64,000 nucleotides of DNA from a virus. The position numbers and the translations under genes were made by a program. The stretch covers positions 143,261 through 207,260 of IMG/VR virus record IMGVR_UViG_3300046692_000091; one strand, written 5' to 3'. The notes below the pieces were generated by a model. That model saw only the letters and a program-made list of their open reading frames with translations, made no database searches and was not told where the DNA came from. Below, one piece after another: positions 3,943-63,660 of the stretch; position 1 is the first letter of the stretch; each line of letters starts with the position of its first letter.

Positions 3943-4377
3943 GTGAACGACCATACTAAAAGCAAAGGAGGGAGGCTTTTATTTTGTAACATGGTTACGT
4001 TAGTAACATCCTTATTCCCTACCAACAAGAGATCAGAAATGACCGCAAGTAATGTTGTAAAGATCCCGGTAATCTGCATGGGTGCAGAATCGAAATTCCT
4101 GACTAAGAAGACAGTTCAGCTCGAGAAGATCGTAAGCTGTCAATTGGTAGACGCATATGGCGTACAGATTAAGGATTATGTGGTAGCTAATGAAGCTCCT
4201 ATTCCTAATCTGTACCAACGGACCATCTATAAGAAAGGTCTGGCAACATCCGAAAAGATTGGGTCGCTATTTGTTGATCAAGTAACAGGGTCTTATACTC
4301 TGAAGCTGTTAGATCCATTGGCTCGACCAGCAGGTGTTGATATCCAACTTACCATCCAAACGAAGGAAGCCGCATGA
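3943..4377 (+). CDS. hypothetical protein; start uncertain (GTG 3943, ATG 3990 or ATG 4039); C-terminus ...KEAA
   Basis: ORF; stop overlaps next start (gccgcATGa). Confidence 0.45.
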   Translation: MNDHTKSKGGRLLFCNMVTLVTSLFPTNKRSEMTASNVVKIPVICMGAESKFLTKKTVQLEKIVSCQLVDAYGVQIKDYVVANEAPIPNLYQRTIYKKGLATSEKIGSLFVDQVTGSYTLKLLDPLARPAGVDIQLTIQTKEAA

Positions 4378-4811
4378 CTGAAGTGTCTATTCGCCGTATG
4401 CCTGTTGATGACAGTGCAGATAGCCGTCAAGCCATTATTCAGGTACCGATTCATAATACCGAATGCTACCAACTACCTGATCTGTTGGGCATTAACCCAA
4501 CAGCAATTCATTGGATCACTCCGGTCCAAGTCTCAGCACAATACTCAGGTATCCCAGCCCCAGGATTTACGTTTACCATTCGTCCTTACCGTGAGCAAGA
4601 AGGTGGTGGACAATGGGTAGATGTATTCTACCGGCTGAACAAGGTAGCCCTCATTTCGATCGGTGGACCACATGGCCGTATCGTCACGGGTAATGCACTC
4701 GATGAACAATTGGCTAAGTTGTTCCCTGAGATGGCAGAAGCAGTAGCACAAGTAACGGTGGCCTTCCTCGTGCAGTACGAGGTTCCTCATGAAGACACGT
4801 TTGCTACTTGA
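4374..4811 (+). CDS. hypothetical protein (145 aa)
   Basis: ORF; ATGA overlap with upstream gene. Confidence 0.55.
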   Translation: MTEVSIRRMPVDDSADSRQAIIQVPIHNTECYQLPDLLGINPTAIHWITPVQVSAQYSGIPAPGFTFTIRPYREQEGGGQWVDVFYRLNKVALISIGGPHGRIVTGNALDEQLAKLFPEMAEAVAQVTVAFLVQYEVPHEDTFAT

Positions 4812-7125: not shown

Positions 7126-7272
7126 ATGGAAACGTTAGGCTCTTCATTAATATTGTTAGGTATTCTCGCCTTCTTCTTCGGTTTCGGTGATATGTGCGGG
7201 ACTAATAAAAAGGTAGTTGTTGGTAGTGTTGCCGCAATCGTAGCGGGCGTGATTATCAATTTAATCAACTAG
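7126..7272 (+). CDS. small membrane protein (48 aa), not in ORF track
   Basis: METLGSSLILLGILAFFFGFGDMCGTNKKVVVGSVAAIVAGVIINLIN; two hydrophobic helices. Confidence 0.45.
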   Translation: METLGSSLILLGILAFFFGFGDMCGTNKKVVVGSVAAIVAGVIINLIN

Positions 7273-7280
7273 GGGGTTCT

Positions 7281-7457
7281 ATGTGGGCACTCTATCTCGT
7301 AGCATTTGTTATCTTCGCTATCGGCTTGGAGTTCTTCTTAGGGGAACGTCAATCCAAAGTAGACGATGATGACATTGGACGTACCAGTACTGGTGAAGAA
7401 CGTTTCGCAGGACTGGTATTAATGTTGGTAGGTGTAACAATTGCATTATGGGTGTAA
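7281..7457 (+). CDS. small membrane protein (58 aa), not in ORF track
   Basis: MWALYLVAFVIFAIGLEFFLGER...FAGLVLMLVGVTIALWV; SD 'tagggggttctATG'. Confidence 0.45.
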   Translation: MWALYLVAFVIFAIGLEFFLGERQSKVDDDDIGRTSTGEERFAGLVLMLVGVTIALWV

Positions 7458-7458
7458 C

Positions 7459-7656
7459 ATGGAAACATTAGTTGGAATTATAGCTGCAATCGCCATGGCC
7501 AGTGCAATTGCTTTACTGGTATTGGGGATCAACGCTCTATGTTGGTGGGAAGCCTTTCTTCCCAAAACAAAGCGAAAAGTATTTATCAGTGCCTGTGTGT
7601 TGGGCACGATTGTATTTTTCAGTGTGCTTTGGTTTATTTGGCTCATGCACAACTAA
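7459..7656 (+). CDS. small membrane protein (65 aa)
   Basis: METLVGIIAAIAMASAIALLVLG...; starts at taacATGg after previous gene. Confidence 0.5.
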   Translation: METLVGIIAAIAMASAIALLVLGINALCWWEAFLPKTKRKVFISACVLGTIVFFSVLWFIWLMHN

Positions 7657-7684
7657 CACAAAAAATCTGAAATCTATATTACTA
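7655..7684 (+). promoter_or_regulatory. promoter-like motif aaaaaatctgaaatCTATATTACtactgtg
   Basis: Nearly identical 30-mer at 27808; precedes sspB-like gene. Confidence 0.5.
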
Positions 7685-7717
7685 CTGTGAATTCATAAAG
7701 ACCATTAGGGGCTACAA

Positions 7718-8458
7718 ATGCAAATCGAACAACGCGATACCAACATGACCCGCACTATGATGGACGCTTTCTTCAGTTGGTTCGCGGCAAACGACATCAG
7801 CCGTATCCACGTTATTGTGGACGGCACCCTTTTTGACAGTAAGGCTTTCGTAGACGATATGAATGGTCTGTATCAGATCCGTTTGTCTATTGGCGCTGCT
7901 GCAGTTCGTGGTTTCGGTTATCATGAACATGGCTTCTCGTACGGTTGCATGCGTCAAGGTGTTCATATCGACATGGACATTCCTTACGAAGCAGTGTTGG
8001 GCTTTGTTATCCCAACTGGTGAGAACACCGAAGTCATCTTCGAGGTTCCTAACCTGGAACGTCACCAAATGAAACTCGAACAACAGAAAGGTTTGTTGCC
8101 ACAACTGGGTAACTTCGCTTTCGTTGATCATGAAGGTAAAGCACTGCCGGATGAAATGGTTCATGAGCTGATGCGTCAACTCGTTCCATCCAATGCGGCC
8201 AAAGCAATCGAAGCCGCTCCTTATGCCGTACATGGCATCGCCCCAGAGACCCAGGATGAGGAAGGCAATCAACTGCCAACCATCACTGACCTGATGACCC
8301 GTAAACCTCTGGCGCAGCGTCCTGCTAAGCCCCAGCCTAAAGAAGCTCAAGCACCATTGTTGAACTTCGGCAATGTAAGTGGTACACAACTTCCAGCCCC
8401 AAAACCAACCCGTGCCATCCCTGCAGGTTGGTCCGTAATCCAAGGAGGTAAAGCATGA
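7718..8458 (+). CDS. sspB: SspB-like ClpXP adaptor homolog (stringent starvation protein B family)
   Basis: N-terminal ~110 aa aligns to E. coli SspB: MMDAFFSWFAANDISRIHVIVDGT vs LLRAFYEWLLDNQLTPHLVVDVT; IRLSIGAAAV vs IVLNIAPRAV; ...IPYEAVLGFV vs ...VPLAAVLAIY. Long low-complexity C-terminal tail, as in SspB. Confidence 0.6.
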   Translation: MQIEQRDTNMTRTMMDAFFSWFAANDISRIHVIVDGTLFDSKAFVDDMNGLYQIRLSIGAAAVRGFGYHEHGFSYGCMRQGVHIDMDIPYEAVLGFVIPTGENTEVIFEVPNLERHQMKLEQQKGLLPQLGNFAFVDHEGKALPDEMVHELMRQLVPSNAAKAIEAAPYAVHGIAPETQDEEGNQLPTITDLMTRKPLAQRPAKPQPKEAQAPLLNFGNVSGTQLPAPKPTRAIPAGWSVIQGGKA

Positions 8459-9168
8459 ACCCGTGTGACCAACTGGCGCATATCACGTGCCGTCGTAAAT
8501 CCCCGCGCCTGGCTGAGATCTTCAAGAAGCTGGATGGGGATTCGCATTTCCAGCAATTGGATATGTATGAACTGAATGACATGTTGTTCCGTGAACTAGC
8601 ATGGATGCCAAGTATGGTATCGATGGATTCTGAAGAACTCTATCAGGTCAACATCCGCACTATCCCGATCGCTCGTTTCGAAGATGGTGGTCTCCGTGTA
8701 CTGTCAATGGATACCCAAACCTTCTGGCCCAGTATGAATGATGTACAATCGGAACATGCTGTTCTGCAAGACATGGTTCATGCAGCTATGGTTAAGCATG
8801 TAATGTCCTGGGGCCTACGAATCAAAGAACCAGAACTGCGTATGCCGGTGTACTTCTCATTCGATCAACTCCGTCAGAATCTGGACGCTGTTGTTGTAGG
8901 GGCTGGTTTGCACACACTGACTGACGAACTCCGTCGTGTGCCACGTAAAACCAATCACCTCACTATTAATGTGGTGTTGACGATTACACCATCATTGATG
9001 TACCAGATCCGTGACCAGTCTCGTGCACAGATCTACATCTGCGACAACAACTTGCAACCTATCAATAACTTTGAAGGTGTTGTTGATAATGGGAACGAAA
9101 GTTTCTTTGACTTCTTGCGGAAACATAGTTACGACAGTAGCGTAATGTTAATGCCAGGTCTGGAGTAA
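8455..9168 (+). CDS. hypothetical protein (237 aa)
   Basis: ATGA overlap with sspB-like gene. Confidence 0.55.
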   Translation: MNPCDQLAHITCRRKSPRLAEIFKKLDGDSHFQQLDMYELNDMLFRELAWMPSMVSMDSEELYQVNIRTIPIARFEDGGLRVLSMDTQTFWPSMNDVQSEHAVLQDMVHAAMVKHVMSWGLRIKEPELRMPVYFSFDQLRQNLDAVVVGAGLHTLTDELRRVPRKTNHLTINVVLTITPSLMYQIRDQSRAQIYICDNNLQPINNFEGVVDNGNESFFDFLRKHSYDSSVMLMPGLE

Positions 9169-9171
9169 CAA

Positions 9172-10554
9172 ATGCTTATTCAGGAAGTGTTAGGGTTATA
9201 CCACAATGCAATAGAGATGCTCAGTTCGGGTGACTCAACAGTCAAAGGTTTCATGACGTTGGGTGTCATGGGTCTGTTGGGTTATTTGGGGCGTACGATA
9301 CCCCAAACAATCTGGGCGTTCATCAAACGTAACACGATTTCATCGATGACTTTCACTCGCGCAGGTTCATATTCCATGGACATGCAGAACTACGTAGAGT
9401 TCATGCGTTGGTTCTCACAATCCAAGTGGGCTAAATATGATCGCAATCGACGTGTAACATTCGATCGGAATGACCCAGCTTTTGGACCAGGTACTGGCTT
9501 CCACTGGTTTGTTTGGAAAGGTCGTTACTTCTGGTTTAATGTTGTCCGTTTGAATTCCTCCGGTACCGATATCGAGAAAGAAGAATTCACACTGTATACA
9601 TTCGGTCGTACCACTAAACCATTCGAAGAACTGGTGGAAGAGTTCCGTATCAAGCCATGCAAGAAATCGATACGTATCTATGCCCCATCGAATGACGGTT
9701 GGAACTATCAGGGGCGACTACGGTTGGACGCTGATGAAACACTGATCATCGATCCAGAAGTAGAGAAAGAGTTCTTTGGTTCTATCGACTGGTATCTGGC
9801 AAACGAACCATGGTACCGTAAACGTGGATTGGCTTATAAACACACTGTCGTGTTGCATGGTCCACCTGGTACCGGTAAGACTTCGTTGATCAAACGTGCA
9901 GCCCGGAAGTACAAGCGGGATATTCACTTCCTGAACTTGGCTACCCATGGTCGTCAGTTGACTGATCTGATGGGTAAGTTGTCGGCTGGTGACATTCTGT
10001 GCATTGAAGACTTTGATGATGTCAAGTCGTTGCACCGTCGCACTGGTCCGAAGAAGATGGAAATCGGTGAACTGGACATCGGTTCCGATAAGAAACCAGA
10101 AGCGTTGTTGATGGACTGCGAGATTCAACTCAGTACCTTCCTCAACGTTCTGCAAGGCGTTGTAGAGCTCGATGATATCATTATCGTGCTGACTACTAAC
10201 CACCTGGAACTGATCGATCCAGCGGTCTACCGTCCGTCCCGTGTGAACAAACTGATCGAAGTGCTACCTCTGAAAGATCCGGAAGTTAAGCGCTATATCG
10301 ACACGATGTATGATAATCCTACTTACGATCGTAATGTAATGTACCCAGACGTTCCAGCTTCTACCCTGGCTGGTATCTTCATGGAGCACCCGAACGATCA
10401 CCTGGCTTTCATTGATAAGCTAGATTCGTTGGACGACAAATACGTCGCGGAGAACTATGCTCTACAACCAGAGCCCCCGCGCCCACCTTCCAAGAAAAAT
10501 AAGGACCCTTCTCCAATAGGAGGACAGGTTCTTGAAACCGTAGAGGCAGCGTAA
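9172..10554 (+). CDS. membrane-anchored AAA+ ATPase, Bcs1-like
   Basis: N-terminal TM helix GFMTLGVMGLLGYLG; Walker A HGPPGTGKTSLIK; Walker B ILCIEDFD; BCS1-like ...IHFLNL. Confidence 0.7.
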   Translation: MLIQEVLGLYHNAIEMLSSGDSTVKGFMTLGVMGLLGYLGRTIPQTIWAFIKRNTISSMTFTRAGSYSMDMQNYVEFMRWFSQSKWAKYDRNRRVTFDRNDPAFGPGTGFHWFVWKGRYFWFNVVRLNSSGTDIEKEEFTLYTFGRTTKPFEELVEEFRIKPCKKSIRIYAPSNDGWNYQGRLRLDADETLIIDPEVEKEFFGSIDWYLANEPWYRKRGLAYKHTVVLHGPPGTGKTSLIKRAARKYKRDIHFLNLATHGRQLTDLMGKLSAGDILCIEDFDDVKSLHRRTGPKKMEIGELDIGSDKKPEALLMDCEIQLSTFLNVLQGVVELDDIIIVLTTNHLELIDPAVYRPSRVNKLIEVLPLKDPEVKRYIDTMYDNPTYDRNVMYPDVPASTLAGIFMEHPNDHLAFIDKLDSLDDKYVAENYALQPEPPRPPSKKNKDPSPIGGQVLETVEAA

Positions 10555-10555: not shown

Positions 10556-10897
10556 ATGGATAATTTTGCACGTCACAACTTCAACGTCTACCCGGAAGAG
10601 ATGACCTACCACAAAGATCGCTTCTTGCAAAATGATGCTGGTTGTGCGGTAGTTACATTCGTTGGGGCTTTTCATGGCGATACCATTCTGACGAATGAAG
10701 TCGAAGTGATTGCACGTGGTGTGGAACTGGGTAAGATCGCTCGGTTCCTGGTTCGTTCAGGTGATCAGGAAACCCATCTCGACATGGATCTGACAACCTG
10801 CCGTTATGAAGCAGAAAGCAATATCAAAACCAAACTGGGTGACGTCGTACTGGTGTTCACCGCGCACTACCCAACCGAAGAAAAGGAAGCTGCATGA
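10556..10897 (+). CDS. hypothetical protein (113 aa); ends KEAA
   Basis: ORF; stop overlaps next ATG. Confidence 0.5.
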   Translation: MDNFARHNFNVYPEEMTYHKDRFLQNDAGCAVVTFVGAFHGDTILTNEVEVIARGVELGKIARFLVRSGDQETHLDMDLTTCRYEAESNIKTKLGDVVLVFTAHYPTEEKEAA

Positions 10898-11832
10898 TTC
10901 GCGTTCGTTATGGTTACAGTCATAGTTCTTCGACGATGCCTGTTGAAATGAAACACATGCCGGGTGGTGAACTCCACCCAACGCTTGACACGGATCACTT
11001 GAATGCCAGCGAGTACACCATCTACGCCGACACCAAGAGCTCGGATGATCTGTTTGGTATTGCTCTGGTAGCTAACGCTATCCGCCGTAATGCCGAAGTA
11101 CCAATCAAAGCACTCTCTCTGGTAATTGGTTATGTGCCTTATGCACGCCAAGACCGTATTGTTGGTGGTGAAGGTGAGGCACTATCGATCGAAGTGATGG
11201 CCGACTTCATCAACATGCTGAACTTCGATGCAGTGATCATTGCAGATCCCCACAGCGATACAACTCCGGCTTTGATCCGTAATGCTAAGGTCATGTCCCA
11301 GGAAATGATCTTCAGTGAATTCCTGATCCGCGAAACGGCAGACTTCGATACCCGTGAGATTGCTTACGTGCCATCTGAGTACATCCTGGTTTCCCCAGAT
11401 GCTGGTGCGATCAAGAAGACCGAGAAGCTGGCTACTAAGTTCGGCTTTAAAGGTGTAGCGTACGCTAACAAAACACGCAATACCCGTACCGGTAAGATCA
11501 CTGGTTGTACTGTGGACCGATTGGTTTTGGATGGTGAACCAGCAATGATAAGTCAACTACAAGGCGAGAAGCTTTTAGTAGTTGACGATATCTGTGATGG
11601 TGGTTATACATTTATCCAATTGGCCGAAGTGTTGAATACCTACAGCCCAGCTAGTTTGGAACTGTACGTCACTCACGGTATCTTCTCTAAAGGTCTCGAG
11701 CCGTTGTATAAAGCGGGTTACACTCGTGTTGTTACTACCAATGCTTATGGCATGGAAGGTAGCACTGAGCTGTATGCGCTTGAGAAAGAAGAAAAGAAAG
11801 CACTCAAATTCGTAAAAATCGATATTGCCTAA
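10894..11832 (+). CDS. ribose-phosphate pyrophosphokinase family protein (Prs-like; alternatively ADPR pyrophosphokinase Adps of the NARP1 pathway)
   Basis: Prs signatures GYVPYARQDR and PRPP-binding loop LLVVDDICDGGYT; 312 aa. Confidence 0.7.
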   Translation: MIRVRYGYSHSSSTMPVEMKHMPGGELHPTLDTDHLNASEYTIYADTKSSDDLFGIALVANAIRRNAEVPIKALSLVIGYVPYARQDRIVGGEGEALSIEVMADFINMLNFDAVIIADPHSDTTPALIRNAKVMSQEMIFSEFLIRETADFDTREIAYVPSEYILVSPDAGAIKKTEKLATKFGFKGVAYANKTRNTRTGKITGCTVDRLVLDGEPAMISQLQGEKLLVVDDICDGGYTFIQLAEVLNTYSPASLELYVTHGIFSKGLEPLYKAGYTRVVTTNAYGMEGSTELYALEKEEKKALKFVKIDIA

Positions 11833-11841
11833 GGATTCAAA

Positions 11842-13656
11842 ATGTCAATGTTTCTCAACGCTGGTACCGCTACTGACTTCTACAAACCTGGCCACGGTCC
11901 ACTGTATCCAGAAGGCACTACCCGTAAGTACTCCAACTTCACCCCACGCTCGGCGAAGAACTTCCTGCGTTCCAAAAGCTGCTCGGCTTACTATGATAAC
12001 AAAGTAGTAAACTTCGGCCTGTATGGTACCTGGCAAGAACTGGTTGACCTGTGGGATAAAACCTTCTTCCAAGTTTCGAAGAAGAAAGCAATCGCCTTCA
12101 TCAAACGTCGTTTTGATAATGGCACTGGTCCTGATGTTATCACAACTGCTCAAATCGCTGCACTCCACGATGTCGGCTTCCTGCCGGTAACTGTGTTGTC
12201 CATCGAAGAAGGTAACCGTGTCGATATCGGCATTCCTCTGTGGGTTATCTATAACTCCGAAGAATACCCAGAACACTACTGGCTGGTTAACTACCTGGAA
12301 ACCATCACCAGTTCGTACAACTGGCAGTCGATCACCAACGCAACCATCGCCTACGAATATCGTCGTCTGTGCGAGATCTGGGCTGCTAAGACCTGTGATA
12401 ACAATGACCACGTTAAAATCCAAGGTCATGACTTCTCGTTCCGTGGCATGCCTGGTCCAGAAGCTGCTGGTCGTTCTAACGCGGGCCACTTGGCTTCGTT
12501 CTGGGGTACTGATACTATCCCGGCAATCGATTACATCGAACGCCTGTATAACGCCAACTCTGATAAAGAAGTCCTGGGTGTATCGGTTACTGCTACTGAA
12601 CACGCCGTTGCTACTGCGAATATCCTGTCTCGCCTGAAGCACAAGATCCGTGCTCTGCCTGCCGACACTGTTATCTCCGGTGAAATGATCGATCTGCTCA
12701 AACTCGAATGCGAGCGTGAGTACATCCTGGAAATCATCCTGGTAAAAGTGAAGAAGGGTATCATCTCCCTGGTTTGCGATTCCTTCGACTTCTGGAGTGT
12801 TATCGAACACGTACTGCCTTCGCTCCGTAAGGAAATCGAAAGCCGTATCGTGAACGAACTCGGTCTGGCTAAAGTAGTTGTACGTCCTGACTCGGGTAAT
12901 CCGGTACACGTGATCTGTGGTTTCAAAATCATGGGTGAGTTCGCTGACATTGCTGCATTCTCGAAGCATGTCTACGACAACGGTACTTTCGAACTGGGTA
13001 TGTACGAAGCTGTGAAGATTGGTGATGTTTACCATGAACTGCAGAATACTACTTGGACTAGCTGCTCTATCGAAGACTTCCTGGGTCGTGAGATGAAGCG
13101 GGTAGAAGCAATCGGTGCGATCGAATCCCTGTGGGAATCTTTCGGTGGTCACACTAACACCAAAGGCTATAAAGTACTGAACTCGTACATCGGTCTGATC
13201 TATGGTGACTCGATCACTGTTGAACGTACCGAACAGATCTTCCAACGTCTGGCTGATAAAGGCTTCGCTTCGTCGAACGTTGTTCTGGGTATCGGTTCGT
13301 TTACTTATCAGTACAACACTCGTGATACCTTCGGCATGGCCATGAAGGCAACTGCGTGTGAAGTGCAGGATGAACTGATCGAGCTGTACAAAGATCCGAA
13401 GACCGCTGCATCCAAGAAGTCCGCTAAAGGCTTCCTGCGTGTACTGAAAGACGAGAACGGCAAATATACACTCGAACAAGAAGTGGAAATGGATTGGAAA
13501 GATCTGTTCTACGGTTCGGGTGAACTGAAGCCTCTGTTCCACAACGGTAAGTTCCAGCGTGCTGAACATTTCGGTGATGTACGTAGTCGCATTGACTCTA
13601 CTTTCGTAGTAGCTAATGACGATGACGGTTTCGACCCAGTCGAAGAAGCGGCATAA
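11842..13656 (+). CDS. nicotinamide phosphoribosyltransferase family protein (NAMPT/NadV-like, or Namat-like), 604 aa
   Basis: N-terminal GTATDFYKPGH resembles NAMPT DSYKxxH; type II PRTase-like length; ends VEEAA. Confidence 0.65.
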   Translation: MSMFLNAGTATDFYKPGHGPLYPEGTTRKYSNFTPRSAKNFLRSKSCSAYYDNKVVNFGLYGTWQELVDLWDKTFFQVSKKKAIAFIKRRFDNGTGPDVITTAQIAALHDVGFLPVTVLSIEEGNRVDIGIPLWVIYNSEEYPEHYWLVNYLETITSSYNWQSITNATIAYEYRRLCEIWAAKTCDNNDHVKIQGHDFSFRGMPGPEAAGRSNAGHLASFWGTDTIPAIDYIERLYNANSDKEVLGVSVTATEHAVATANILSRLKHKIRALPADTVISGEMIDLLKLECEREYILEIILVKVKKGIISLVCDSFDFWSVIEHVLPSLRKEIESRIVNELGLAKVVVRPDSGNPVHVICGFKIMGEFADIAAFSKHVYDNGTFELGMYEAVKIGDVYHELQNTTWTSCSIEDFLGREMKRVEAIGAIESLWESFGGHTNTKGYKVLNSYIGLIYGDSITVERTEQIFQRLADKGFASSNVVLGIGSFTYQYNTRDTFGMAMKATACEVQDELIELYKDPKTAASKKSAKGFLRVLKDENGKYTLEQEVEMDWKDLFYGSGELKPLFHNGKFQRAEHFGDVRSRIDSTFVVANDDDGFDPVEEAA

Positions 13657-14349: not shown

Positions 14350-15774
14350 ATGAAAGAATATTTGTCCATGCAGCAAGAAGTACTGGAACGAGGCGTGCCG
14401 AAAGGTGACCGCACTGGTACTGGTACTATTTCTTGCCCTGGTGTTAGTCGTGTATATGACATCAGCGATAATCGGTTGGCTGCAACGTCTACCAAAAAGA
14501 TTCACATCAAGACAGGTCAGGTTGAAGAAGACTGGATGTTGTCAGGTGATACCCGACTGAAGTTCCTGAAAGACAACAACTGCAACATCTGGGACGAATG
14601 GGTTCTGAAAGGTACCGGTATCTATCGTAATCGTACGGTCAAAGAAATGCGTCGAGTTTATACTCGTAACCATTTCGGTTGGTCTAAACCAGTCGTTCTA
14701 GATATCGGTTGTGACCCAGAGAACACAGAAGTCTGGAATAAGGTTGCAGAAACAGAGGACTTCGAAGTCTGGGCATGGGACGTAACTAAAGGCATCGGCA
14801 TTAAACCACATCATGGCATTCGGGATAAGTCCAAGGATAGTCTGAATTGGATGAACTGGCAAAACCCAGAAGATCCTATTTGGCTTCAGTTCTACTCTGC
14901 TCTGGGTATCTCTGATCTGGAAGTAATGGACGGAGAACTCGGTAAGGTATACGGGGCAATGTTCCGTAGTATCGAAGACACCCGTATCGATAGTGGTGGG
15001 GGTGTTAATGAGAAAGAATGGACAGACCGTGGATTCTCTTGGGAAGGTATGTTAGGTGATGGCCGATCGGTGTATACGCGTAAGATCGATCAGGTTGCTA
15101 AACTACTGTATGATCTGGAGCATAACCCAGATTCTCGTCGTTTGATTCTGTGTCCATGGAACCCAGCATATGTAGATGAACAAGCATTGCCTCCTTGCCA
15201 TTCATTCATCCAGTTCTGGACGCGTGAGATGACTTCCGAGCAACGTTACCATGTCTATTGTAAGCAGTATGACCGTGAGCAAAAAGAGTTGCTTGACGAC
15301 ATTGCTAAACGTAGTCGTGCCGACATTTATACTGCGCATGCTCCATATCCGTTGTCATGCTTTGCTGAAGTCGACGACCGTGGTACTTTCTTCGATCATT
15401 ATAAGCTGCATGCTTATCTAGATGAGCTTGATGTTCCACGTCGTGCTTTGACATGCATTGTTTATATGCGGTCTAACGATGTGTTCTTGGGTGCACCGTA
15501 TAACCTCACGTTCTATTCTTCACTAACGCACAAGCTGGCTCACCAGTTTAACATGTACGGTGAGAAACTGGTTCACTTCGTAGGTGATGCACATATCTAC
15601 CAGAACCATTTGGATCAAGTTGCCGAACAACAAGCTCGTACACCTGACCGTGATATGCCTCGACTGAAGATCAATGTTCCGAAAGGTACTTCGATTCTCG
15701 ACATGACGTTCCAAGATCTGGAAGTGATCGGTTATAACCCACAGCCTGCTATTGAAGCACCTGTAGCTGTTTAA
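14350..15774 (+). CDS. thyA: thymidylate synthase ThyA, 474 aa with large insertions
   Basis: DRTGTGT, DPDSRRLILCPWNP, catalytic LPPCHSFIQFW, C-terminal GDAHIYQNHLDQ; three inserted segments relative to ~264-aa ThyA. Confidence 0.85.
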   Translation: MKEYLSMQQEVLERGVPKGDRTGTGTISCPGVSRVYDISDNRLAATSTKKIHIKTGQVEEDWMLSGDTRLKFLKDNNCNIWDEWVLKGTGIYRNRTVKEMRRVYTRNHFGWSKPVVLDIGCDPENTEVWNKVAETEDFEVWAWDVTKGIGIKPHHGIRDKSKDSLNWMNWQNPEDPIWLQFYSALGISDLEVMDGELGKVYGAMFRSIEDTRIDSGGGVNEKEWTDRGFSWEGMLGDGRSVYTRKIDQVAKLLYDLEHNPDSRRLILCPWNPAYVDEQALPPCHSFIQFWTREMTSEQRYHVYCKQYDREQKELLDDIAKRSRADIYTAHAPYPLSCFAEVDDRGTFFDHYKLHAYLDELDVPRRALTCIVYMRSNDVFLGAPYNLTFYSSLTHKLAHQFNMYGEKLVHFVGDAHIYQNHLDQVAEQQARTPDRDMPRLKINVPKGTSILDMTFQDLEVIGYNPQPAIEAPVAV

Positions 15775-54865: not shown

Positions 54866-56125
54866 TTAACCTTTTACGCAGAGAATTTGTTTGAGAGTAT
54901 GGACGATGTCCACGAGTTGTTCTTGTGCAGACATTACGTCTTCGATGTTCTTGTAAGCTTTTGGTGTTTCATCGATGACAGAGATATCCTTACGACATTC
55001 TACACCAGCTGTATCACGGACATGATCTTCCAGGGTGAATGTCTTAGCAGCCTGAGTACGGGACATGACTCGGCCAGCTCCGTGTGAACACGAGCAGAAA
55101 GAATCACGGTTACCTTTACCACGGACGATGAAAGACTTAGCGCCCATCGAACCAGGGATAATCCCGAGTGTACCTTTATCTGCGTTCACTGCACCCTTAC
55201 GAGTTACCAGAACGTTGTTACCGAAGTGGCGTTCTTCTGATACGTAGTTGTGGTGGCAGTTGATGGCCGACATATCGGAATCGATTGGCAGACCTAGAGT
55301 ACGGTGGATAGCACCAAGAGTAGCATGCATCATGATCGAACGGTTAAGTGCAGCGAAGCGTTGTGCCCAGGACACGGCTTCGATGTAGTCGTTGTAATAT
55401 TGCGAACCTTCGGGGAGGTAAGCGAGATCACCATCTGGCAGATGAATGAAGAAACGTTTCATTTCTTCTTTTGCTTTCGAGATAAAGTAAGTACCGATTG
55501 CGTTACCGATACCACGAGAACCAGAGTGCAGCATCACCCACACTTGATCGGATTCATCCAGACAGATCTCGATGAAGTGGTTACCTGTACCGAGAGTACC
55601 TACATGGTTCCATGCACGAGCTGCAGCTTTCGCCAACTTAGGATGACGTTCTACAATACGTTCCAGATGCTTACGCAGTTTCTCTGCTTCATCACGGATA
55701 GCTTGAGATTGGTGAGTGAACACGGATACCGTACCAAATGCACCACGATCGTTCTTCCCACCGTTGTCAGTACGGCCATGAGGCACTGAGGCTTCGATAG
55801 CGGCACGCAAATGGCCAAGAGAGGTCGGTAGTGCTGTGGACTTAAAAGTAAGGCGCTGCGCAGCCATACCACAACCGATATCAACACCTACTGCGGCTGG
55901 AATGATTGCGCCTTTAGTAGCAACCACAGAACCCACTGTTGCACCTTTACCCAAGTGTACGTCGGGCATCACAGCAATGTGCGAATAGATGAATGGGAGG
56001 GCAGCAATGTTCTTGAGTTGAGAAATTGCTTCTTTCTCTACTGGTACGCCAACGGTCCAGCCTTTGATTGGTTTAGAACCTGGTTCTACTGTATCACCAA
56101 TCAGTTCAAATGTTTTCTGTTTCAT
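54866..56125 (-). CDS. rtcB: RNA-splicing ligase RtcB (3'-phosphate/5'-hydroxyl RNA ligase)
   Basis: Full-length RtcB signatures MPDVHLGKG, GCGMA, HSGSRG, CHHNY, IIPGSMG, SCSHGAGR; SD 'gtgaggctttatATG'. Confidence 0.85.
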   Translation of the reverse strand: MKQKTFELIGDTVEPGSKPIKGWTVGVPVEKEAISQLKNIAALPFIYSHIAVMPDVHLGKGATVGSVVATKGAIIPAAVGVDIGCGMAAQRLTFKSTALPTSLGHLRAAIEASVPHGRTDNGGKNDRGAFGTVSVFTHQSQAIRDEAEKLRKHLERIVERHPKLAKAAARAWNHVGTLGTGNHFIEICLDESDQVWVMLHSGSRGIGNAIGTYFISKAKEEMKRFFIHLPDGDLAYLPEGSQYYNDYIEAVSWAQRFAALNRSIMMHATLGAIHRTLGLPIDSDMSAINCHHNYVSEERHFGNNVLVTRKGAVNADKGTLGIIPGSMGAKSFIVRGKGNRDSFCSCSHGAGRVMSRTQAAKTFTLEDHVRDTAGVECRKDISVIDETPKAYKNIEDVMSAQEQLVDIVHTLKQILCVKG

Positions 56126-56160
56126 ATAAAGCCTCACGCGGATGGAAAGAGGAATTGTTA

Positions 56161-56186
56161 CATACACTGACTTTGCCAGTATTATT
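56161..56186 (-). promoter_or_regulatory. minus-strand promoter-like bipartite motif (AATACTGG-N11-TATGT) upstream of rtcB
   Basis: RC = taataATACTGGcaaagtcagtgTATGTaac; one of 5 copies. Confidence 0.45.
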
Positions 56187-58335: not shown

Positions 58336-58411
<76 letters not shown>

Positions 58412-58416
58412 TAATT

Positions 58417-58505
58417 TGGCGGAAGCATAGAGATTCGAACTCTAGGGGCTGTTACACCCGACGGTTTTCAAGACCGTTGCCTTAAGCCATCTCGGCCATG
58501 CTTCC
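58417..58505 (-). tRNA. tRNA-Ser (anticodon TGA), type II long variable arm
   Basis: RC = GGAAGCATGGCCGAGATGGCTTAAGGCAACGGTCTTGAAAACCGT...TAGAGTTCGAATCTCTATGCTTCCGCCA. Confidence 0.85.
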
Positions 58506-58520
58506 TGTGTTGCTTTTGTA

Positions 58521-58606
58521 TGGTGCGGACAGAGAGACTCGAACTCTCACGCCCTAAGGGCGCTGGAACCTAAATCCAGTGCGTCTACCAATTCCGCCAT
58601 GTCCGC
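58521..58606 (-). tRNA. tRNA-Leu (anticodon TAG), type II
   Basis: RC = GCGGACATGGCGGAATTGGTAGACGCACTGGATTTAGGTTCCAG...GAGAGTTCGAGTCTCTCTGTCCGCACCA. Confidence 0.85.
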
Positions 58607-58636
58607 TGTATATTATTACACACCAAGTATTTTTTT
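58607..58636 (-). promoter_or_regulatory. minus-strand promoter-like motif immediately upstream of tRNA-Leu(TAG)
   Basis: RC = aaAATACTTGgtgtgtaataaTATACa followed directly by the tRNA 5' end GCGGACA. Confidence 0.5.
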
Positions 58637-58637
58637 A

Positions 58638-59369
58638 TTAGACTACGCTGGGGGTGTAATTATTGGTGTAACGCACGTAGTTACTAATTCTTACATTACC
58701 TAGGTAACGAGGAACGTTATTAGCGTTGCTGTTTAGAGCACCTAGGTATAACGTAGACAAGTTAGCGAAGTTACTAGCTGGTCCACTCTGGAAGAAACCA
58801 GATAATGTTCCACCTGAAACTCCAGGCTGCATGTCTTGTAGTACGCCGTTAATATAGAATCTTAGGCGGCGATTAGTATCGCAGGTCATTGCGTATTTAG
58901 TGACTATATTCGTAAAGGTGTTGAAGGTAACTGCCGGGTAACGACACTCTGACTTCGCTCCACTGTTGCTGTTATCAGAGAACATCAATAGATTACCATA
59001 ACCGGCATCACCAAAGCGCATGGTGAAACCTTTGAGTAATGACGAATCTGTCATATAGAATTCGTTTGTCCAAGCCGTAGCATTACCTGGGCGAAGTTCT
59101 GACCACTCGATTGTCCAATTGGTACTAGACAAATCCAAGAGTGGGTTGAAAGCCATGAATAAACGCGAACCACTACCACCAGCTGTAGGCATAGATAGGG
59201 TTGGTTTATTATCAATTAGTGTTGTGTTACTCACCACTGCGCCAGCGGATATTGTGATGGGTCTATTACTAACAGTCTCGGTCACTGTGGCCATGTCAAT
59301 ATACAGGATCACATCACCTGTTTCTGGCGGGACCGAGCTCGAACTTGGTGATAGTAGTAATTCATACAT
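58638..59369 (-). CDS. concanavalin A-like/LamG-like domain protein (243 aa), paralog of 61416-62135
   Basis: Shared blocks with paralog: MYExLL, TGDVxxLYxD, NWTxEWS, RxGDxGxxxLxxxDN, RxSNxxRYTxNYTP. Confidence 0.5.
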   Translation of the reverse strand: MYELLLSPSSSSVPPETGDVILYIDMATVTETVSNRPITISAGAVVSNTTLIDNKPTLSMPTAGGSGSRLFMAFNPLLDLSSTNWTIEWSELRPGNATAWTNEFYMTDSSLLKGFTMRFGDAGYGNLLMFSDNSNSGAKSECRYPAVTFNTFTNIVTKYAMTCDTNRRLRFYINGVLQDMQPGVSGGTLSGFFQSGPASNFANLSTLYLGALNSNANNVPRYLGNVRISNYVRYTNNYTPSVV

Positions 59370-59433
59370 GTTGATTATCCTGGTTATATAAACATATAAT
59401 TAGGTGATAGTCAAAATCCCCTTTGCATAATAC

Positions 59434-59459
59434 AGCATAAAGCTTCCCCAAAGGGAAGC
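59434..59459 (-). terminator. hairpin + CTTTATGCTG (minus strand) after tRNA-Leu(TAA)
   Basis: RC gcttccctttggggaagctttatgctg. Confidence 0.5.
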
Positions 59460-59467
59460 ACTATGTT

Positions 59468-59554
59468 TGGTGCGGGGAGCGGGATTCGAACCCAGCGAGC
59501 CTGTACAGGCGGCGGCTTTTAAGGCCGCTATGTATTCCGCTCCATCATCCCCGC
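59468..59554 (-). tRNA. tRNA-Leu (anticodon TAA), type II; slightly irregular T-stem
   Basis: RC = GCGGGGATG...GCGGCCTTAAAAGCCGC...GGGTTCGAATCCCGCTCCCCGCACCA. Confidence 0.7.
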
Positions 59555-60408
59555 GTGTAACTAAATTCGGTCCCAGCATCCAGGATTCAAGCCCTGGTTA
59601 TCAACGAACACGGGGTCGTTGGTAGATCGCCGCTGGGCGAGCTTTTCATCCCAATGTACAGCTTGAGCTGGTCGCGGCATTCCGCTAGAGGTCAAACCGT
59701 TCCGAAGGGTCTATCTACTTACTCGCCTTACAACGCTTCAGAGTGATGGAGGGCAAGTAAAAGAATCGGGGTAACCCACTATTCCCTTGGCAGCGGTCAT
59801 GGTTTAAGATGACTTGCGGAATAGCTCGTTACATGGGTGCACTATAGCGTACACGTCGCTGCCTTTCGGCCTTCTCATCGATTACCAGCCGCAGCTAGTT
59901 CTCTGTGTATGGCCCAGTAGCCTCTTTACGGGAGTCATCTACTGGGAAGGTTACCACTACAGGACTATCACCTTCTATGGCCTGGTATTCCAACCAGTTC
60001 ATGTAACCAAGACGGACATCTGATCCGTTGCAGCCGAGTCGTAACGCTTCTTCGGTATGGCGCCTTAGTAGTCAGGACTATCTGACCTTTGGGGTATCAT
60101 GAGTACGGGCTTCGAGTTTCCCTGATATTCCACTATTCTAGTCTTTTGTGGAACGTCATTGGGTATCATTCGTAGATCTATACAAGTGTAACTCTGTGCC
60201 CTAGTCTGAGGATTAATCAGACACCTGTATTGATCCGAGCCTATCCCTTCCAGGCTAGGTCTTCACACTCCCACTTCTGGGGGAATGCGTATGTAAAAGT
60301 TTGATGGAACGATCCTCTACCTTCATCTATTCGGACTTAGGCGACCTTTTCAGCACAGTGGGGTGGAGTGCACTTACCCAACATCCTACCATGTCTTTCA
60401 CATGCTCT

Positions 60409-61083
60409 TTATTCGTGCGTAGTAGACAGCTCAGAGATAATGCAGATCGAACCATCTTCAACCGGAGTGGTATCGGAGTAATCAACCTGATTGTAAACAC
60501 CACCATGGAACTGGAAGGTTTCATATTTCCACGAACTATCTAGCTTCAGCACTGGGCAGACTGACTTACGACCTTGGCAAAGCACTGACGCCGATACGGA
60601 ACCAGCAGCTGTGACATGTAAGCTAATCTTGAATGGTACACCCAATGGAACGTCTTCTATTAGTGTAAAGTTGTTTATTAGTGCGTCATCGAAGTTAGCT
60701 CGGAAACCAGCTGTGATCTTCCCTTTATTCCAGAAGACTTTCAGTGGCGGAGTTGTAGCATCTTTGACATGGACTTGTGCAATTACCACTTTCTTAGCCG
60801 AGTTGACTTTAGTAACAGTCATCTCTTGGCGAGACCAGTGATGTGCTGCGCTAGTAAGAGACCAATAAGCTGGTTCTTTCCATTCACAGCGTGTGCGATG
60901 TGTACTTTTGCTGGACGCCCCTAATGTGGGCGCAGAGAGTTGAATAGAACCGTCTTCCAATTGACTGACCACTTCTGGACATCTTACCAAGGCTTCCGAA
61001 CCGAGGAGCTCCAATGCAACCGGATTCTCATCAGAGACCGGTAATGGAGTAGCAATCAAATAGTTACTGATATCAACGAACAT
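60409..61083 (-). CDS. beta-jelly-roll protein, tentatively polysaccharide lyase family 7 (alginate lyase)-like
   Basis: VIAQVHVKD resembles PL7 Q(I/V)H; FQFHGGVYNQ resembles PL7 YFKAGVYNQ. By-eye call only. Confidence 0.35.
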   Translation of the reverse strand: MFVDISNYLIATPLPVSDENPVALELLGSEALVRCPEVVSQLEDGSIQLSAPTLGASSKSTHRTRCEWKEPAYWSLTSAAHHWSRQEMTVTKVNSAKKVVIAQVHVKDATTPPLKVFWNKGKITAGFRANFDDALINNFTLIEDVPLGVPFKISLHVTAAGSVSASVLCQGRKSVCPVLKLDSSWKYETFQFHGGVYNQVDYSDTTPVEDGSICIISELSTTHE

Positions 61084-61101
61084 TTTAACTCTCTTTTGAA
61101 A

Positions 61102-61177
61102 TGGCGGGCATCCAGGGAGTCGAACCCCGAACCGACGGATTTGGAATCCGTTACTCTGCCAATTGAGCTAGACACCC
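61102..61177 (-). tRNA. tRNA-Trp (anticodon CCA)
   Basis: RC = GGGTGTCTAGCTCAATTGGCAGAGTAACGGATTCCAAATCCGTCGGTTCGGGGTTCGACTCCCTGGATGCCCGCCA. Confidence 0.85.
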
Positions 61178-61185
61178 GAATGAAG

Positions 61186-61267
61186 AAAGGGAACAGGAAT
61201 CGAACCTGCGTTTCCGGCTTGGTACTTATGGTGGCCACCGGTGTCCTAGGCCGCTAGACGACCCCTC
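61186..61267 (-). ncRNA. atypical tRNA-like element (possible pseudo-tRNA or noncanonical tRNA)
   Basis: RC has acceptor GAGGGGT/TCCCTTT and T-arm GCAGGTTCGATTCCTGT but ~33 nt of palindromic CCGGTGGCCACC...CCGG where the anticodon arm should be. Confidence 0.3.
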
Positions 61268-61384
61268 TCACAAACTTGGTCGGGTTTTTGTTAAACCAGG
61301 CTAACCGATATCCCTGGTCCCTATCGAGTAAGCTCTAGGGGAGTCTTACTCTTACGCTCGTTTGGAGACTTAACGACAGTCTCT

Positions 61385-61412
61385 CGTATACTATTACACT
61401 GCCAGTATTTTG
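61385..61412 (-). promoter_or_regulatory. minus-strand promoter-like motif upstream of tRNA-like element and tRNA-Trp
   Basis: RC = aaAATACTGGcagtgtaatagTATACgag. Confidence 0.5.
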
Positions 61413-61415
61413 TTA

Positions 61416-62135
61416 TTACAACTCTAGTGGGCCAGGAGTATAGTTACGTGTATATCTAGCGAAGTTACTAAGTCGAACTCTACCGTGATGCCCAGGAACA
61501 GCACGTACCGAACTACCGTTCGAATCACCAAATATAAGCGAGGTGATATTGATCAGTGCTGTTGGTGTAATCGTTTGCATAATGTAGGTTCCATTAGCTG
61601 CACCCTTAGCCAATGGGAGTCTCTGTCCATTACGGTAAATAAAGATCTGACCATTCTTACATACAAATGCCCATCTACTCAAATTACTAACTAAGGCAGC
61701 TTTAGTGAATTGGGTATTATAACAATCGGCTGGTGCAGAGGCTGTGTTATCCCCCAAATGGAGTCTGTCTAAGAAACCAGAGTCACCATACCTGAAGAAT
61801 AGTCCACGGCCAGCTGTTGAACTAGTCATTGAAAATTCAAGGGCATAGGCAGTAGGGGCGGTGTCGTTTATAGATGACCATTCTAATGTCCAGTTTATTG
61901 CACTTAAGTTGAGAGGGGCTGCAAATGTCATCACCTGTTTAGCTGCAACCGTTGGGTATTGCATACTGCCTTGCCCATCGATTAAATACCCAGCGTCAGC
62001 TATTGCTCCACCGGTATTGTTGGTGACGGTACCTAACCCAGATAGATCGGTGGCGGTAACTGGATCATACAAGAATAACACATCCCCTGTGTCCTCCACT
62101 GGTAAACTACCCCCAGCTAATAATGCCTCATACAT
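61416..62135 (-). CDS. concanavalin A-like/LamG-like domain protein (239 aa), paralog of 58638-59369
   Basis: Same conserved blocks as 58638-59369. Confidence 0.5.
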   Translation of the reverse strand: MYEALLAGGSLPVEDTGDVLFLYDPVTATDLSGLGTVTNNTGGAIADAGYLIDGQGSMQYPTVAAKQVMTFAAPLNLSAINWTLEWSSINDTAPTAYALEFSMTSSTAGRGLFFRYGDSGFLDRLHLGDNTASAPADCYNTQFTKAALVSNLSRWAFVCKNGQIFIYRNGQRLPLAKGAANGTYIMQTITPTALINITSLIFGDSNGSSVRAVPGHHGRVRLSNFARYTRNYTPGPLEL

Positions 62136-62198
62136 GACGGTGTGTCCTTTGGTTTATCAATTCAAACTATTGGGCGACATAAGAGTAGCCGAAGCTAC

Positions 62199-62393
62199 TC
62201 ATCCATAAAGAGTTCCCCAGTTAACAACTTTATTCAGTTGTTCTTGAGTAGGGATTTTATCTCTGACTCGTTGCTCGCATTCTTTATCGAATTGTTCCAT
62301 TCTGATACGTGCTTCTTTGAGCCTTTCTTTTTGTTCATCTGTCAGTGGTTCTAATGCGTTACGTGAGAGTGCTATTAAAGTAGCCAGGCTCAT
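62199..62393 (-). CDS. small helical protein (64 aa), member 5 of tandem paralog array
   Basis: MSLATLIALSRNALEPLTDEQKERLKEAR...; ATGA overlap with member 4. Confidence 0.5.
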   Translation of the reverse strand: MSLATLIALSRNALEPLTDEQKERLKEARIRMEQFDKECEQRVRDKIPTQEQLNKVVNWGTLYG

Positions 62394-62572
62394 ATCGTGA
62401 TCAGCCTATTCAAGAGTTCTTGTGAAGGAGCCGTACGCGCGTGGCGCTCGTCAATCTCTTTGTTATATCCCCGCATTCTTTCATAGAACGCTATATTCCT
62501 TTTCTCACGCTCTTCGGCAGATATTGGTTCAGCTCTTTTATTAGCCAGATCTATTAAAGCTTTCAGGCTCAT
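62390..62572 (-). CDS. small helical protein (60 aa), member 4
   Basis: MSLKALIDLANKRAEPISAEEREKRN...SQELLNRLITI. Confidence 0.5.
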   Translation of the reverse strand: MSLKALIDLANKRAEPISAEEREKRNIAFYERMRGYNKEIDERHARTAPSQELLNRLITI

Positions 62573-62736
62573 AATGAGATTACTCTGTTTAAGAGTTCTT
62601 CTGTAACTACTGAGGCTTTCCATTCCTTGGATAACCGGATGTTAGTCTGTCTCATTCTTTCTTGGGCAACGGAAAGGCTTTCTTCATGTGTACCATTGCG
62701 CGTACGAGCATCTTCGATGAGTTGTTCAAGTGTCAT
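62569..62736 (-). CDS. small helical protein (55 aa), member 3, not in ORF track
   Basis: MTLEQLIEDARTRNGTHEES...TEELLNRVISL; ATGA overlaps on both sides. Confidence 0.45.
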   Translation of the reverse strand: MTLEQLIEDARTRNGTHEESLSVAQERMRQTNIRLSKEWKASVVTEELLNRVISL

Positions 62737-62900
62737 AACGTACATCTCTTAGCTAAAAGTTCAGGGGTAACTTTCTGCTTCTCGAAGTCTTCAGCACACC
62801 GCTTATTAAAAGCAGCCGAACGTTTAGCATGGGCTGCCATGCGTTCTTCTTTAGTGCCCATGCTATCTCTTACAGCTTTACACAGTGCCTCTAGACTCAT
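62733..62900 (-). CDS. small helical protein (55 aa), member 2, not in ORF track
   Basis: MSLEALCKAVRDSMGTKEERMAAHAK...TPELLAKRCTL. Confidence 0.45.
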   Translation of the reverse strand: MSLEALCKAVRDSMGTKEERMAAHAKRSAAFNKRCAEDFEKQKVTPELLAKRCTL

Positions 62901-63082
62901 AACGTACACCTTTTGTTCAAGATCTCAGGAGTCATTTGTTGATTTTTCAACTGTTGCTCCAGCCTCTGGTCCAGTTCAGACATATATTTCTTTTGATACT
63001 CTTGAAACTCTACCTGTGTCATACCCATAGCCGATGCAATCCGATCTGCCATTCGTTCAATTAATCCCGGTGTCATTGCCAT
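62897..63082 (-). CDS. small helical protein (61 aa), member 1
   Basis: MAMTPGLIERMADRIAS...TPEILNKRCTL; same KRCTL end as member 2. Confidence 0.5.
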   Translation of the reverse strand: MAMTPGLIERMADRIASAMGMTQVEFQEYQKKYMSELDQRLEQQLKNQQMTPEILNKRCTL

Positions 63083-63345
63083 TAATCCACCTGTATCTGT
63101 ACATAGACTCTTGTCACACCATGCACGAAGTCATAGTTGCTTACGTACTGTGCTTCATTCAAAGGCTTAGCACTGATCCATACTTGGATGATATCCTGTC
63201 CACACTTACGTAGGATCTTAGATACACGGTTCTGGATACGTCTACGACCTACTGCAGATATCTTAGGGAACTCACGCTTTAACATGAGTACCATGCGTTC
63301 ATGGCATTCTTTGCCACGCTGTACTTCTGATGGGGTTCTATGCAT
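63082..63345 (-). CDS. small basic protein (87 aa), possible HTH
   Basis: FPKISAVGRRRIQNRVSKILRKCG resembles a sigma region-4-type HTH; TAATG overlap upstream. Confidence 0.4.
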   Translation of the reverse strand: MHRTPSEVQRGKECHERMVLMLKREFPKISAVGRRRIQNRVSKILRKCGQDIIQVWISAKPLNEAQYVSNYDFVHGVTRVYVQIQVD

Positions 63346-63629
63346 TAGTGCATCACCATTGAACCTTCGAGATGGCAAGCGCAACGACACAGTTGTGTTT
63401 CTGTATCGCCATCAACCACAATCAACAGACTAGGATAGAATTGACGTTTAGCAAAAACTAGCTTACCCCATTCTGATTCTGTATCATCTCGTTCAATAGC
63501 TACAGCCGTTTCACTAAAGTTCTTTTTTAGGAAAGCTTCACTCAGTGTGTGATCTTTATTGAGGTATTGACGTTCACTTCTTGCGCAACAAGGTACCATT
63601 GGATATTCCTCTTTTGGATTAGACAGCAT
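63345..63629 (-). CDS. Cys-rich hypothetical protein (94 aa)
   Basis: MVPCCARSE ... QLCRCACH; start is the ATG inside a hairpin-CTTTATG element. Confidence 0.4.
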   Translation of the reverse strand: MLSNPKEEYPMVPCCARSERQYLNKDHTLSEAFLKKNFSETAVAIERDDTESEWGKLVFAKRQFYPSLLIVVDGDTETQLCRCACHLEGSMVMH

Positions 63630-63650: not shown

Positions 63651-63660
63651 TTTATTGAAT

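Follow-up and report, generated by a model that had tools for sequence, protein, structure and literature searches.

What use would a jumbo phage have for a protein built like SspB, the bacterial adaptor that enhances the specificity of the ClpXP protease? The question is raised by a gene in the viral record IMGVR_UViG_3300046692_000091 (IMG/VR), of which positions 143,261 to 207,260 were analysed; this whole stretch of 64,000 nucleotides (nt) is called the window here, and all coordinates refer to it. The window comes from a Pseudomonas-type jumbo phage of about 300 kb, related to Psa21, D6 and RVTF4, and has a GC content of about 46%. An original prediction, made from the letters alone, had read the product of the gene as an SspB homologue that could serve as either adaptor or decoy. 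Its N-terminal domain (about 110 residues) is indeed a genuine but remote SspB substrate-binding domain, as decided at the level of family profile and structure. The protein represents no new system, being a further member, from a subclade with a characteristic tryptophan, of a group of phage SspB homologues that has already been recognised.

A remote SspB domain

7718–8458, plus strand: coding sequence of the SspB-like protein, 246 amino acids (ATG at 7718, TGA ending at 8458, C-terminus ...AGWSVIQGGKA)
7745–8068, plus strand: SspB-type substrate-binding domain, residues ~10–117, made up of a helix at the N-terminus and then a small beta-barrel

The protein is soluble and has an acidic N-terminal domain and a basic C-terminus, like SspB. 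(An antisense open reading frame [ORF] at 7712–8443 is a shadow of this coding sequence and was rejected as a gene.) BLASTP aligns the protein with the E. coli SspB domain over 84 residues at 25% identity (expect value, E, 1e-4), and the substrate-binding motifs that the original prediction had considered recognisable are all present: DAFFSWFAAN, HVIVDGT, QIRLSIGAAAVRGF and PYEAVLGF, corresponding to RAFYEWLLDN, HLVVDVT, QIVLNIAPRAVGNL and PLAAVLAI in E. coli. Four NCBIfam SspB equivalog models are collinear with it over residues 11–117 (E 9e-4 to 0.05). The single sequence gave no match in a search of PDB sequences, and its sole match among the PHROGs was a family of unknown function. A below-threshold Pfam match to GMP_PDE_delta (E 0.013) was dismissed as noise.

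The relationship becomes clear when the family is searched as a whole. Thirteen close to mid-distance homologues, all from phages or phage-like contigs of about 300 kb, were aligned with the window protein, and the resulting 14-sequence profile matched 10 sequences in the PDB, all of them SspB (E 4e-7 to 4e-5). Eight of the 14 members also match PF04386 individually (best E 3e-8), and tblastn with a canonical Pseudomonas-type SspB as query detects the Psa21 orthologue directly (E 5e-6). Among 1.84 billion representative sequences, the profile returned 139 proteins, of which about 45 are long phage-type relatives, the remainder being mostly proteins of 125–200 amino acids with canonical SspB tails. 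Since the window protein itself falls below the curated cut-offs, while the family profile matches only SspB in the PDB, it is a remote homologue and not an equivalog.

Structure comparison leads to the same family. An AlphaFold2 (AF2) monomer model has a predicted local distance difference test (pLDDT) score of about 66–76 over residues 10–110 and includes the N-terminal helix (residues 10–25). In a Foldseek search of the PDB with this model, ranks 1–13 are all SspB (E 3e-5 to 6e-4; template modelling [TM] scores with target normalisation, 0.66–0.74); the orthologues of Agrobacterium and Caulobacter come next. The alignment with SspB over the first 110 or so residues, as originally proposed, is thus borne out by sequence, profile and model. 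The outcome that the prediction had named as speaking against it, a lack of SspB-family matches or of the SspB fold, was seen at the single-sequence level only, and not with the profile or the structure.

The substrate-binding groove

The conserved positions of SspB make up the dimer interface and the groove that binds the ssrA tag (PMC9963277). Residues A17, W21, D35, I54, L56, I58, A62, F66, G81, P89 and A92 are common to the window protein and bacterial SspB. Among the nine columns most conserved in bacteria, the phage family as a whole keeps seven; at these nine the window protein has five identical residues (W, L, A, G and P) and two conservative replacements (N57S and F75Y). The change from asparagine to serine in the groove, N57S, is a feature of the clade to which the window belongs.

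A GGK-tailed family in jumbo phages

The long phage-type relatives can be defined operationally by an SspB-like N-terminal domain and a long tail, a PLL(D/N)FG motif, and a terminal [LWM]-x-[VL]-I-x-G-G-K. Alignments and motif counts place the window protein within this GGK family, at 36–50% identity to the Psa21/D6/RVTF4 group. Other members are found in Psa21 (PSA21_299), D6, RVTF4 (XDJ14923.1), Phabio (PHABIO_349), PhiPA3 (gp270), 201phi2-1 (the "SspB domain-containing protein"), the PA1C/PS119XW group and Viktualia; in single-query searches, GGK-tailed SspB was found in only about 20 records. Two of the phages with GGK members, 201phi2-1 and PhiPA3, are treated as nucleus-forming (PMC10299810).

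The window protein shares with this family the domain, the PLL(D/N)FG and xVIxGGK motifs and the same promoter element, and in the Psa21-like clade the operon is common as well. It and its closest metagenomic relatives form a subclade that has tryptophan in place of the leucine of the ClpX-binding (XB) motif and serine in place of the groove asparagine.

In the BFVD database, 201phi2-1 appears to encode two SspB-fold proteins, B3FJK8 and B3FJL0, of 373 and 132 amino acids.

The tail and its C-terminal motif

8069–8344, plus strand: long low-confidence linker, residues 118–209, with the clade-conserved motifs PYAVHG (167–173) and LPTIxDLMxRKP (186–197)
8354–8371, plus strand: PLLNFG motif, residues 213–218, which precedes the C-terminal motif by a constant ~20 residues
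8429–8452, plus strand: C-terminal docking-type motif W-S-V-I-Q-G-G-K, residues 238–245, aligned with L-T-(V/L)-I-Q-G-G-K of relatives

What follows the domain is a tail of about 130 residues, compared with about 50 in bacterial SspB (about 2.5 times the E. coli SspB length). The block-mean pLDDT over residues 118–246 is 41–57, and proline, glycine, serine, glutamine, glutamate, lysine and alanine make up 55–62% of the residues. Low model confidence and composition fit a flexible or disordered tail, in line with the original description. Some positions within it are nevertheless constant: A170, V171, P187, L192 and M193 of the linker are invariant in the family alignment, P213, L214, L215, F217 and G218 are invariant in all 14 sequences, and most of the 28 proteins in a wider family set have PLL(D/N)FG.

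How does the end of this tail relate to the XB motif, with which SspB binds ClpX at its N-terminal domain? The consensus of 62 bacterial SspB tails is K-G-[RK]-P-x-L-[KRT]-[VI]-[VI]-K-COOH, while that of 45 phage-type proteins is P-x-[L/W/M]-T-[VL]-I-[QKE]-G-G-K-x-COOH, with the GG pair's first glycine in all 45 and its second in 42. Relatives at 36–50% identity have a near-canonical XB core followed by an invariant QGGK (for example, GAPHLTVI-QGGKA and KGKPTLTVI-QGGKK, compared with KGKPTLKVVK in bacteria). By alignment, W-S-V-I-Q-G-G-K of the window protein is the positional orthologue of the XB motif, and is XB-like by position only. A scoring matrix was trained on 61 bacterial tails only (99th percentile of shuffled sequences, 9.3 bits). 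Phage members with leucine at the key position (L-type; Psa21-, D6- and RVTF4-like proteins and others) scored 7.6–23 bits in all cases but one (P0017, 2.2 bits), and their best matches always end 5–6 residues before the C-terminus, with QGGK directly after the core.

The QGGK extension could in principle be a by-product of the Shine-Dalgarno sequence of the next gene, which overlaps it. This explanation was rejected, since all four synonymous forms of the first glycine codon occur among the orthologues and the motif is retained next to a different downstream gene. Such synonymous variation of the glycine codons points to selection at the level of the protein.

The 201phi2-1-like homologues P0024, P0027, P0030 and P0041 (249–315 amino acids) contain a second, internal copy of W-x-V-I-x-G-G-K, such as RRWTVIEGGKGK, besides the copy at the C-terminus; in these proteins, PLLDFG is replaced by FPDLDV. 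The internal recurrence suggests that WxVIxGGK behaves as a reusable docking motif.

A further possibility was that the tails carry two SspB-tail motifs in tandem, PLL(D/N)FG being a motif of the "DF-basic" class, like those of Xanthomonas-phage and some bacterial tails. With a matrix built from eight such tails (95th percentile, 7.7 bits), significant and correctly placed matches (8–10 bits) were obtained solely in the Phabio-like subfamily, and nothing was found in the clade of the window, for which the idea was rejected. In the Phabio-like subfamily (Phabio, 4001–4717 of locus L003, and P0028, P0034 and P0044), the tail does read like two classes in tandem, G-I-E-F-H-S-R-K-K and then R-P-x-W-M-T-V-I-D-G-G-K, the first part being the one that gives the significant matches. 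Assignment of the "DF-basic" tails to the alphaproteobacterial SspB-alpha type was unsupported: P0126 matches E. coli-type SspB and not the Caulobacter entries.

A proposed role at host ClpXP

What, then, does the protein do? With about an even chance of being right, it can be proposed that this diverged SspB-family protein acts on host ClpXP in the cytoplasm, either as an adaptor that delivers cargo or as a competitor for the ClpX N-terminal domain. By analogy with SspB, the N-terminal domain, probably as a dimer, would bind a short peptide segment of the cargo, while the C-terminal [L/W]-x-V-I-x-G-G-K would dock on the N-terminal zinc-binding domain of ClpX, a putative step that is the weakest link for the tryptophan-type (W-type) tail. 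One possible outcome is that chosen proteins, whether fragments bearing the ssrA tag or certain proteins of host or phage, would be delivered for degradation. Alternatively, occupation of the ClpX N-terminal domains and of the tag would out-compete host SspB and other adaptors or substrates that depend on these domains.

Several lines of evidence favour a role at ClpXP: the homology to SspB at profile and structure level, the seven conserved columns out of nine, the conserved promoter element upstream (see below), and the significant matches of L-type tails to the canonical XB motif, always at the same place. In addition, the SspB-like protein gp039 of Erwinia phage RAY is diffusely cytoplasmic, and the cytoplasm is where ClpXP resides. 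The solubility and charge distribution of the window protein, and the host-type tails kept by other phage SspBs, point the same way.

Other observations weigh against such a role. The protein had no match to PF04386 in a single-sequence Pfam search, and it scores only 13–19 bits with the NCBIfam SspB models, below all of their cut-offs (162–202 bits). (The Pfam check suggested by the original prediction thus failed for the single sequence and succeeded for the family, through its profile and the 8 of 14 relatives.) The terminus of the window protein scores –5.3 bits with the XB matrix, a failure of the canonical motif that agrees with the earlier remark that the end is not of the LRVVK type. 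The XB leucine, found in 60 of the 62 bacterial tails, is replaced by tryptophan in the window protein and throughout its clade (PAGWSVIQGGKA; PxGW[S/Q]VIQGGKA). Neither the GGK extension nor the additional conserved motifs of the tail have a counterpart in bacterial SspB. Finally, the arginine and phenylalanine of the bacterial A-R-F motif are lost in the window protein and are not conserved in the phage family. Together with N57S, the loss of this motif suggests that cargo specificity is altered, and that the cargo is likely to be something other than the canonical ssrA tag.

Promoter and operon

7660–7689, plus strand: promoter-like element AAAAAATCTGAAATC-TATATTAC-TACTGTG, with the TATATTAC core at 7675–7682, 36 nt upstream of the ATG
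3077, 7675, 21738, 27829, 35028, 40027 and 51328, plus strand: TATATTAC elements, with AT-rich upstream and GTG-like downstream context
8442–8449, plus strand: Shine-Dalgarno sequence AAGGAGGT of the downstream gene, inside the Q-G-G codons of the SspB-like coding sequence
8455–9168, plus strand: orphan gene, 237 amino acids, between the SspB-like and AAA+ genes
9172–10554, plus strand: BCS1-like AAA+ ATPase, 460 amino acids, third gene of the trio, with Pfam matches to BCS1_N (4e-12) and AAA (5e-12)

The TATATTAC element, which we take to be an early-class promoter of the phiKZ type, occurs seven times in the window, always on the plus strand, where 2.05 copies are expected; none of 100 shuffled sequences reached seven. 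The extended context of the copy at 7675 is nearly identical at 27829, and this extended element is found upstream of the orthologous gene exactly in Psa21, Phabio, L005 and L009 and with one mismatch in RVTF4 and D6. The seven elements probably mark the starts of transcription units. The element of the window matches the consensus predicted for the promoters of phiKZ and 201phi2-1 (PMC7058600, Table 2).

Upstream of the promoter element, at 7126–7656 on the plus strand, are three short ORFs of marked hydrophobicity (48, 58 and 71 amino acids; Kyte-Doolittle maxima 2.3–2.8), and a terminator-like hairpin at 7589–7607 ends this group just before the element. In another relative (L008, 5280–5990; JGI contig Ga0436557_0000003), a gene for an I-TevI-like homing endonuclease is inserted directly upstream of the SspB-like orthologue, where TATATTAC is absent within 110 nt.

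The stop codon of the SspB-like gene overlaps the start of the next (ATGA, 8455–8458), and the gene is the head of a translationally coupled trio that includes the 237-residue orphan and the BCS1-like AAA+ ATPase. The orphan, predicted to be co-transcribed, occupies the same slot in RVTF4, D6, Psa21 and three metagenomic relatives. It had no match in Pfam, PHROG or the PDB and a marginal PADLOC match to BrxB (E 0.005), and its AF2 model was unusable (pLDDT 46). The ATPase belongs to phrog_7485 (2e-110), a family of unknown function, and its best match in the PDB is mitochondrial BCS1 (4e-22). Homologues were found in 162 phage records, from jumbo phages of Pseudomonas, Serratia, Klebsiella, Ralstonia, Erwinia, Vibrio and others. 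We know of no role for a BCS1-type translocase of folded proteins in phages. The trio is kept in all Psa21-like relatives, to as low as 36% identity, but not in Phabio, where the SspB-like gene has other neighbours, and in PA1C-type phages the SspB-like and ATPase genes are about 47 kb apart.

Alternative explanations

Could the SspB fold have been put to use outside proteolysis altogether, for example as a peptide-binding scaffold in some other phage process, with the tail motifs recruiting phage or host factors? The low identity to SspB (about 25%, and below family thresholds) and the several conserved tail motifs that have no known counterpart would be consistent with this. However, the full architecture of SspB has been kept (domain, disordered linker and terminal docking peptide), and relatives carry an XB core of the canonical type, which makes such a re-use unlikely.

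The alternative that would be most novel is that the SspB-like protein serves as adaptor or partner of the phage's own BCS1-like ATPase, and not of host ClpX. The domain would then hold cargo, possibly the 237-residue orphan or its clients, while the GGK tail, PLLNFG and the other tail motifs would dock on the ATPase. This would account for the coupling of the three genes and their constant order among Psa21-like relatives, for the failure of the window tail with the ClpX-binding matrix, and for the extension and additional motifs that bacterial SspB does not have. On the other hand, the adjacency is specific to one clade, as the neighbours in Phabio and the distance in PA1C-type phages indicate, and the whole region is syntenic across that clade, so that gene order alone is weak evidence for a pairing. 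Nor do the distributions agree, the ATPase gene being found in many more phage records (162) than GGK-tailed SspB (about 20) by single-query searches. BCS1-type ATPases do not have a ClpX-like zinc-binding domain at the N-terminus, and L-type tails match the ClpX-binding motif strongly. A pairing with the BCS1-like ATPase is accordingly considered rather improbable.

Lastly, the protein might be a pure decoy, whose groove binds ssrA-like tags or degrons without a tether to ClpX (tryptophan standing in for leucine) and thereby shields tagged phage proteins from ClpXP and ClpAP. SspB blocks the recognition of ssrA-tagged proteins by ClpAP (PMC9963277), which makes protection by binding alone mechanistically plausible, and the window terminus has no canonical XB match. 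However, W, V, I, G, G and K hardly vary in the W-type clade and across the family with synonymously varied codons, arguing for a functional docking peptide and not a decayed one, and WxVIxGGK recurs internally in the 201phi2-1-like homologues, so that a decoy appears quite doubtful. The original prediction had left adaptor and decoy side by side; its observation of a non-canonical end stands, but the implied unrelatedness to the ClpX-binding motif does not, since orthologues carry an XB core at the aligned position. W-S-V-I would then be a derived variant of the XB site, making a tetherless decoy less likely than had been proposed.

Other phage SspB homologues

How does the window protein compare with SspB proteins already on record? 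Bacterial SspB (E. coli and H. influenzae; PDB 1OX9, 1OU8 and 8ET3; PF04386) shares with it the fold of the N-terminal domain, the conserved tryptophan, the I-x-L-N-I strand and the alanine, phenylalanine, glycine and proline positions, as well as a disordered tail with a basic, hydrophobic terminal docking peptide, which in the relatives reads like [KR]-P-x-L-x-V-I. In contrast, the window protein is only about 25% identical, has three extra conserved tail motifs, a GGK-extended end and tryptophan for leucine, and is encoded by a phage, behind a phage promoter element.

Phage-encoded SspB-fold proteins are common, with at least 19 confident matches in BFVD. The tail of the DT01 protein, RERPSLKVVK, is identical in its last ten residues to a canonical Pseudomonas-like SspB (P0066), and the tails of pf16, AH06 and FLC4-3B read KKPTLRVVK, RGPSLSIVK and KGFLSVVK, respectively; Xanthomonas phages LucasX and RTH11 have the "DF-R-x-x-RK" tail class, which is also found in some bacterial matches. 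That these other phage proteins keep recognised classes of SspB tail suggests that phages generally preserve the end by which SspB is tethered to the protease.

Other phage proteins act on host AAA+ proteases. SPO1 gp53 (ClpCP adaptor-like) and T4 PinA and T7 gp4.5 (inhibitors of Lon) follow the same concept of redirecting or blocking a host ATP-dependent protease, but their folds and targets are unrelated, and none is SspB-like.

The original prediction did not recall such a protein as having been characterised in phages. Unrecognised it is not: database labels include "stringent starvation protein B" (RVTF4), "SspB domain-containing protein" (201phi2-1) and "Sspb-like stringent starvation protein" (Viktualia), and homologues in AH06, RTH11, DT01, Noxifer and others are called "stringent starvation protein B", "SspB domain-containing protein" or "ClpXP protease specificity-enhancing factor". 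Two published accounts also exist. RAY gp039, the product of an accessory gene, was described as a putative SspB-like adaptor for ClpXP, and its fusion to green fluorescent protein was located outside the phage nucleus, in the cytoplasm (PMC10299810). Like the phage of the window, RAY is a jumbo phage (in its case nucleus-forming) with an SspB homologue and an RtcB homologue nearby. Agricanvirus-type AH06 gp38, the protein of this kind that was compared, differs from the window protein in being short (155 amino acids) and in having a canonical tail. For the phage-encoded SspB of Pseudomonas phage pf16 (gp18), studied by modelling only, the authors proposed interference with host SspB, RseA and ClpXP (PMC5587285). 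Unlike the window protein, pf16 gp18 is a recent host-like copy, 49% identical to Pseudomonas-type SspB and 128 amino acids long, in a T4-like phage. The prediction holds in one respect: no functional test of any phage SspB homologue was found in the searchable literature.

Genome context

10894–13656, plus strand: adjacent pair of PRPP-synthetase-like (312 amino acids) and NAMPT/NAPRTase-like (604 amino acids) genes, beside the trio in all relatives
14350–15774, plus strand: thymidylate synthase, unusually long at 474 amino acids
17224–18735, plus strand: RNA ligase
54866–56167, minus strand: RtcB ligase
58336–63814, minus strand: seven clustered tRNA genes (Thr, Ser, Leu twice, Trp, Asn twice)

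The pair next to the trio presumably resembles the phage pair that reconstitutes NAD+ (Adps/Namat, NARP1) and counters NAD-depleting defences. The Pfam match of the thymidylate synthase is split into two stretches, suggesting a large insertion. From their annotations, the RNA ligase, RtcB and the seven tRNAs look like a toolkit for tRNA repair and supply; a gene for tmRNA was not found in the window.

Implications

Phage SspB homologues were already on record, in databases and in two papers. What is added here is a jumbo-phage subfamily with a GGK-extended tail of the ClpX-binding type, a subclade including the window in which the leucine is changed to tryptophan, and a promoter and operon context by which, in one clade, the gene is linked to a BCS1-like ATPase. 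To our knowledge, almost no study has addressed how jumbo phages, including those that form a nucleus, handle host cytoplasmic proteolysis. If a phage SspB did redirect or block ClpXP, this would be a clear mechanism of host takeover, and one that is easily tested; such a protein may also offer a naturally re-tuned pair of adaptor and tail for engineered degradation systems. If instead the pairing with the BCS1-like protein were true, the SspB-like protein would rank as the first known adaptor of a BCS1-type ATPase, a captured SspB having become half of an adaptor–unfoldase/translocase pair, and jumbo phages would carry a self-contained module for protein remodelling.

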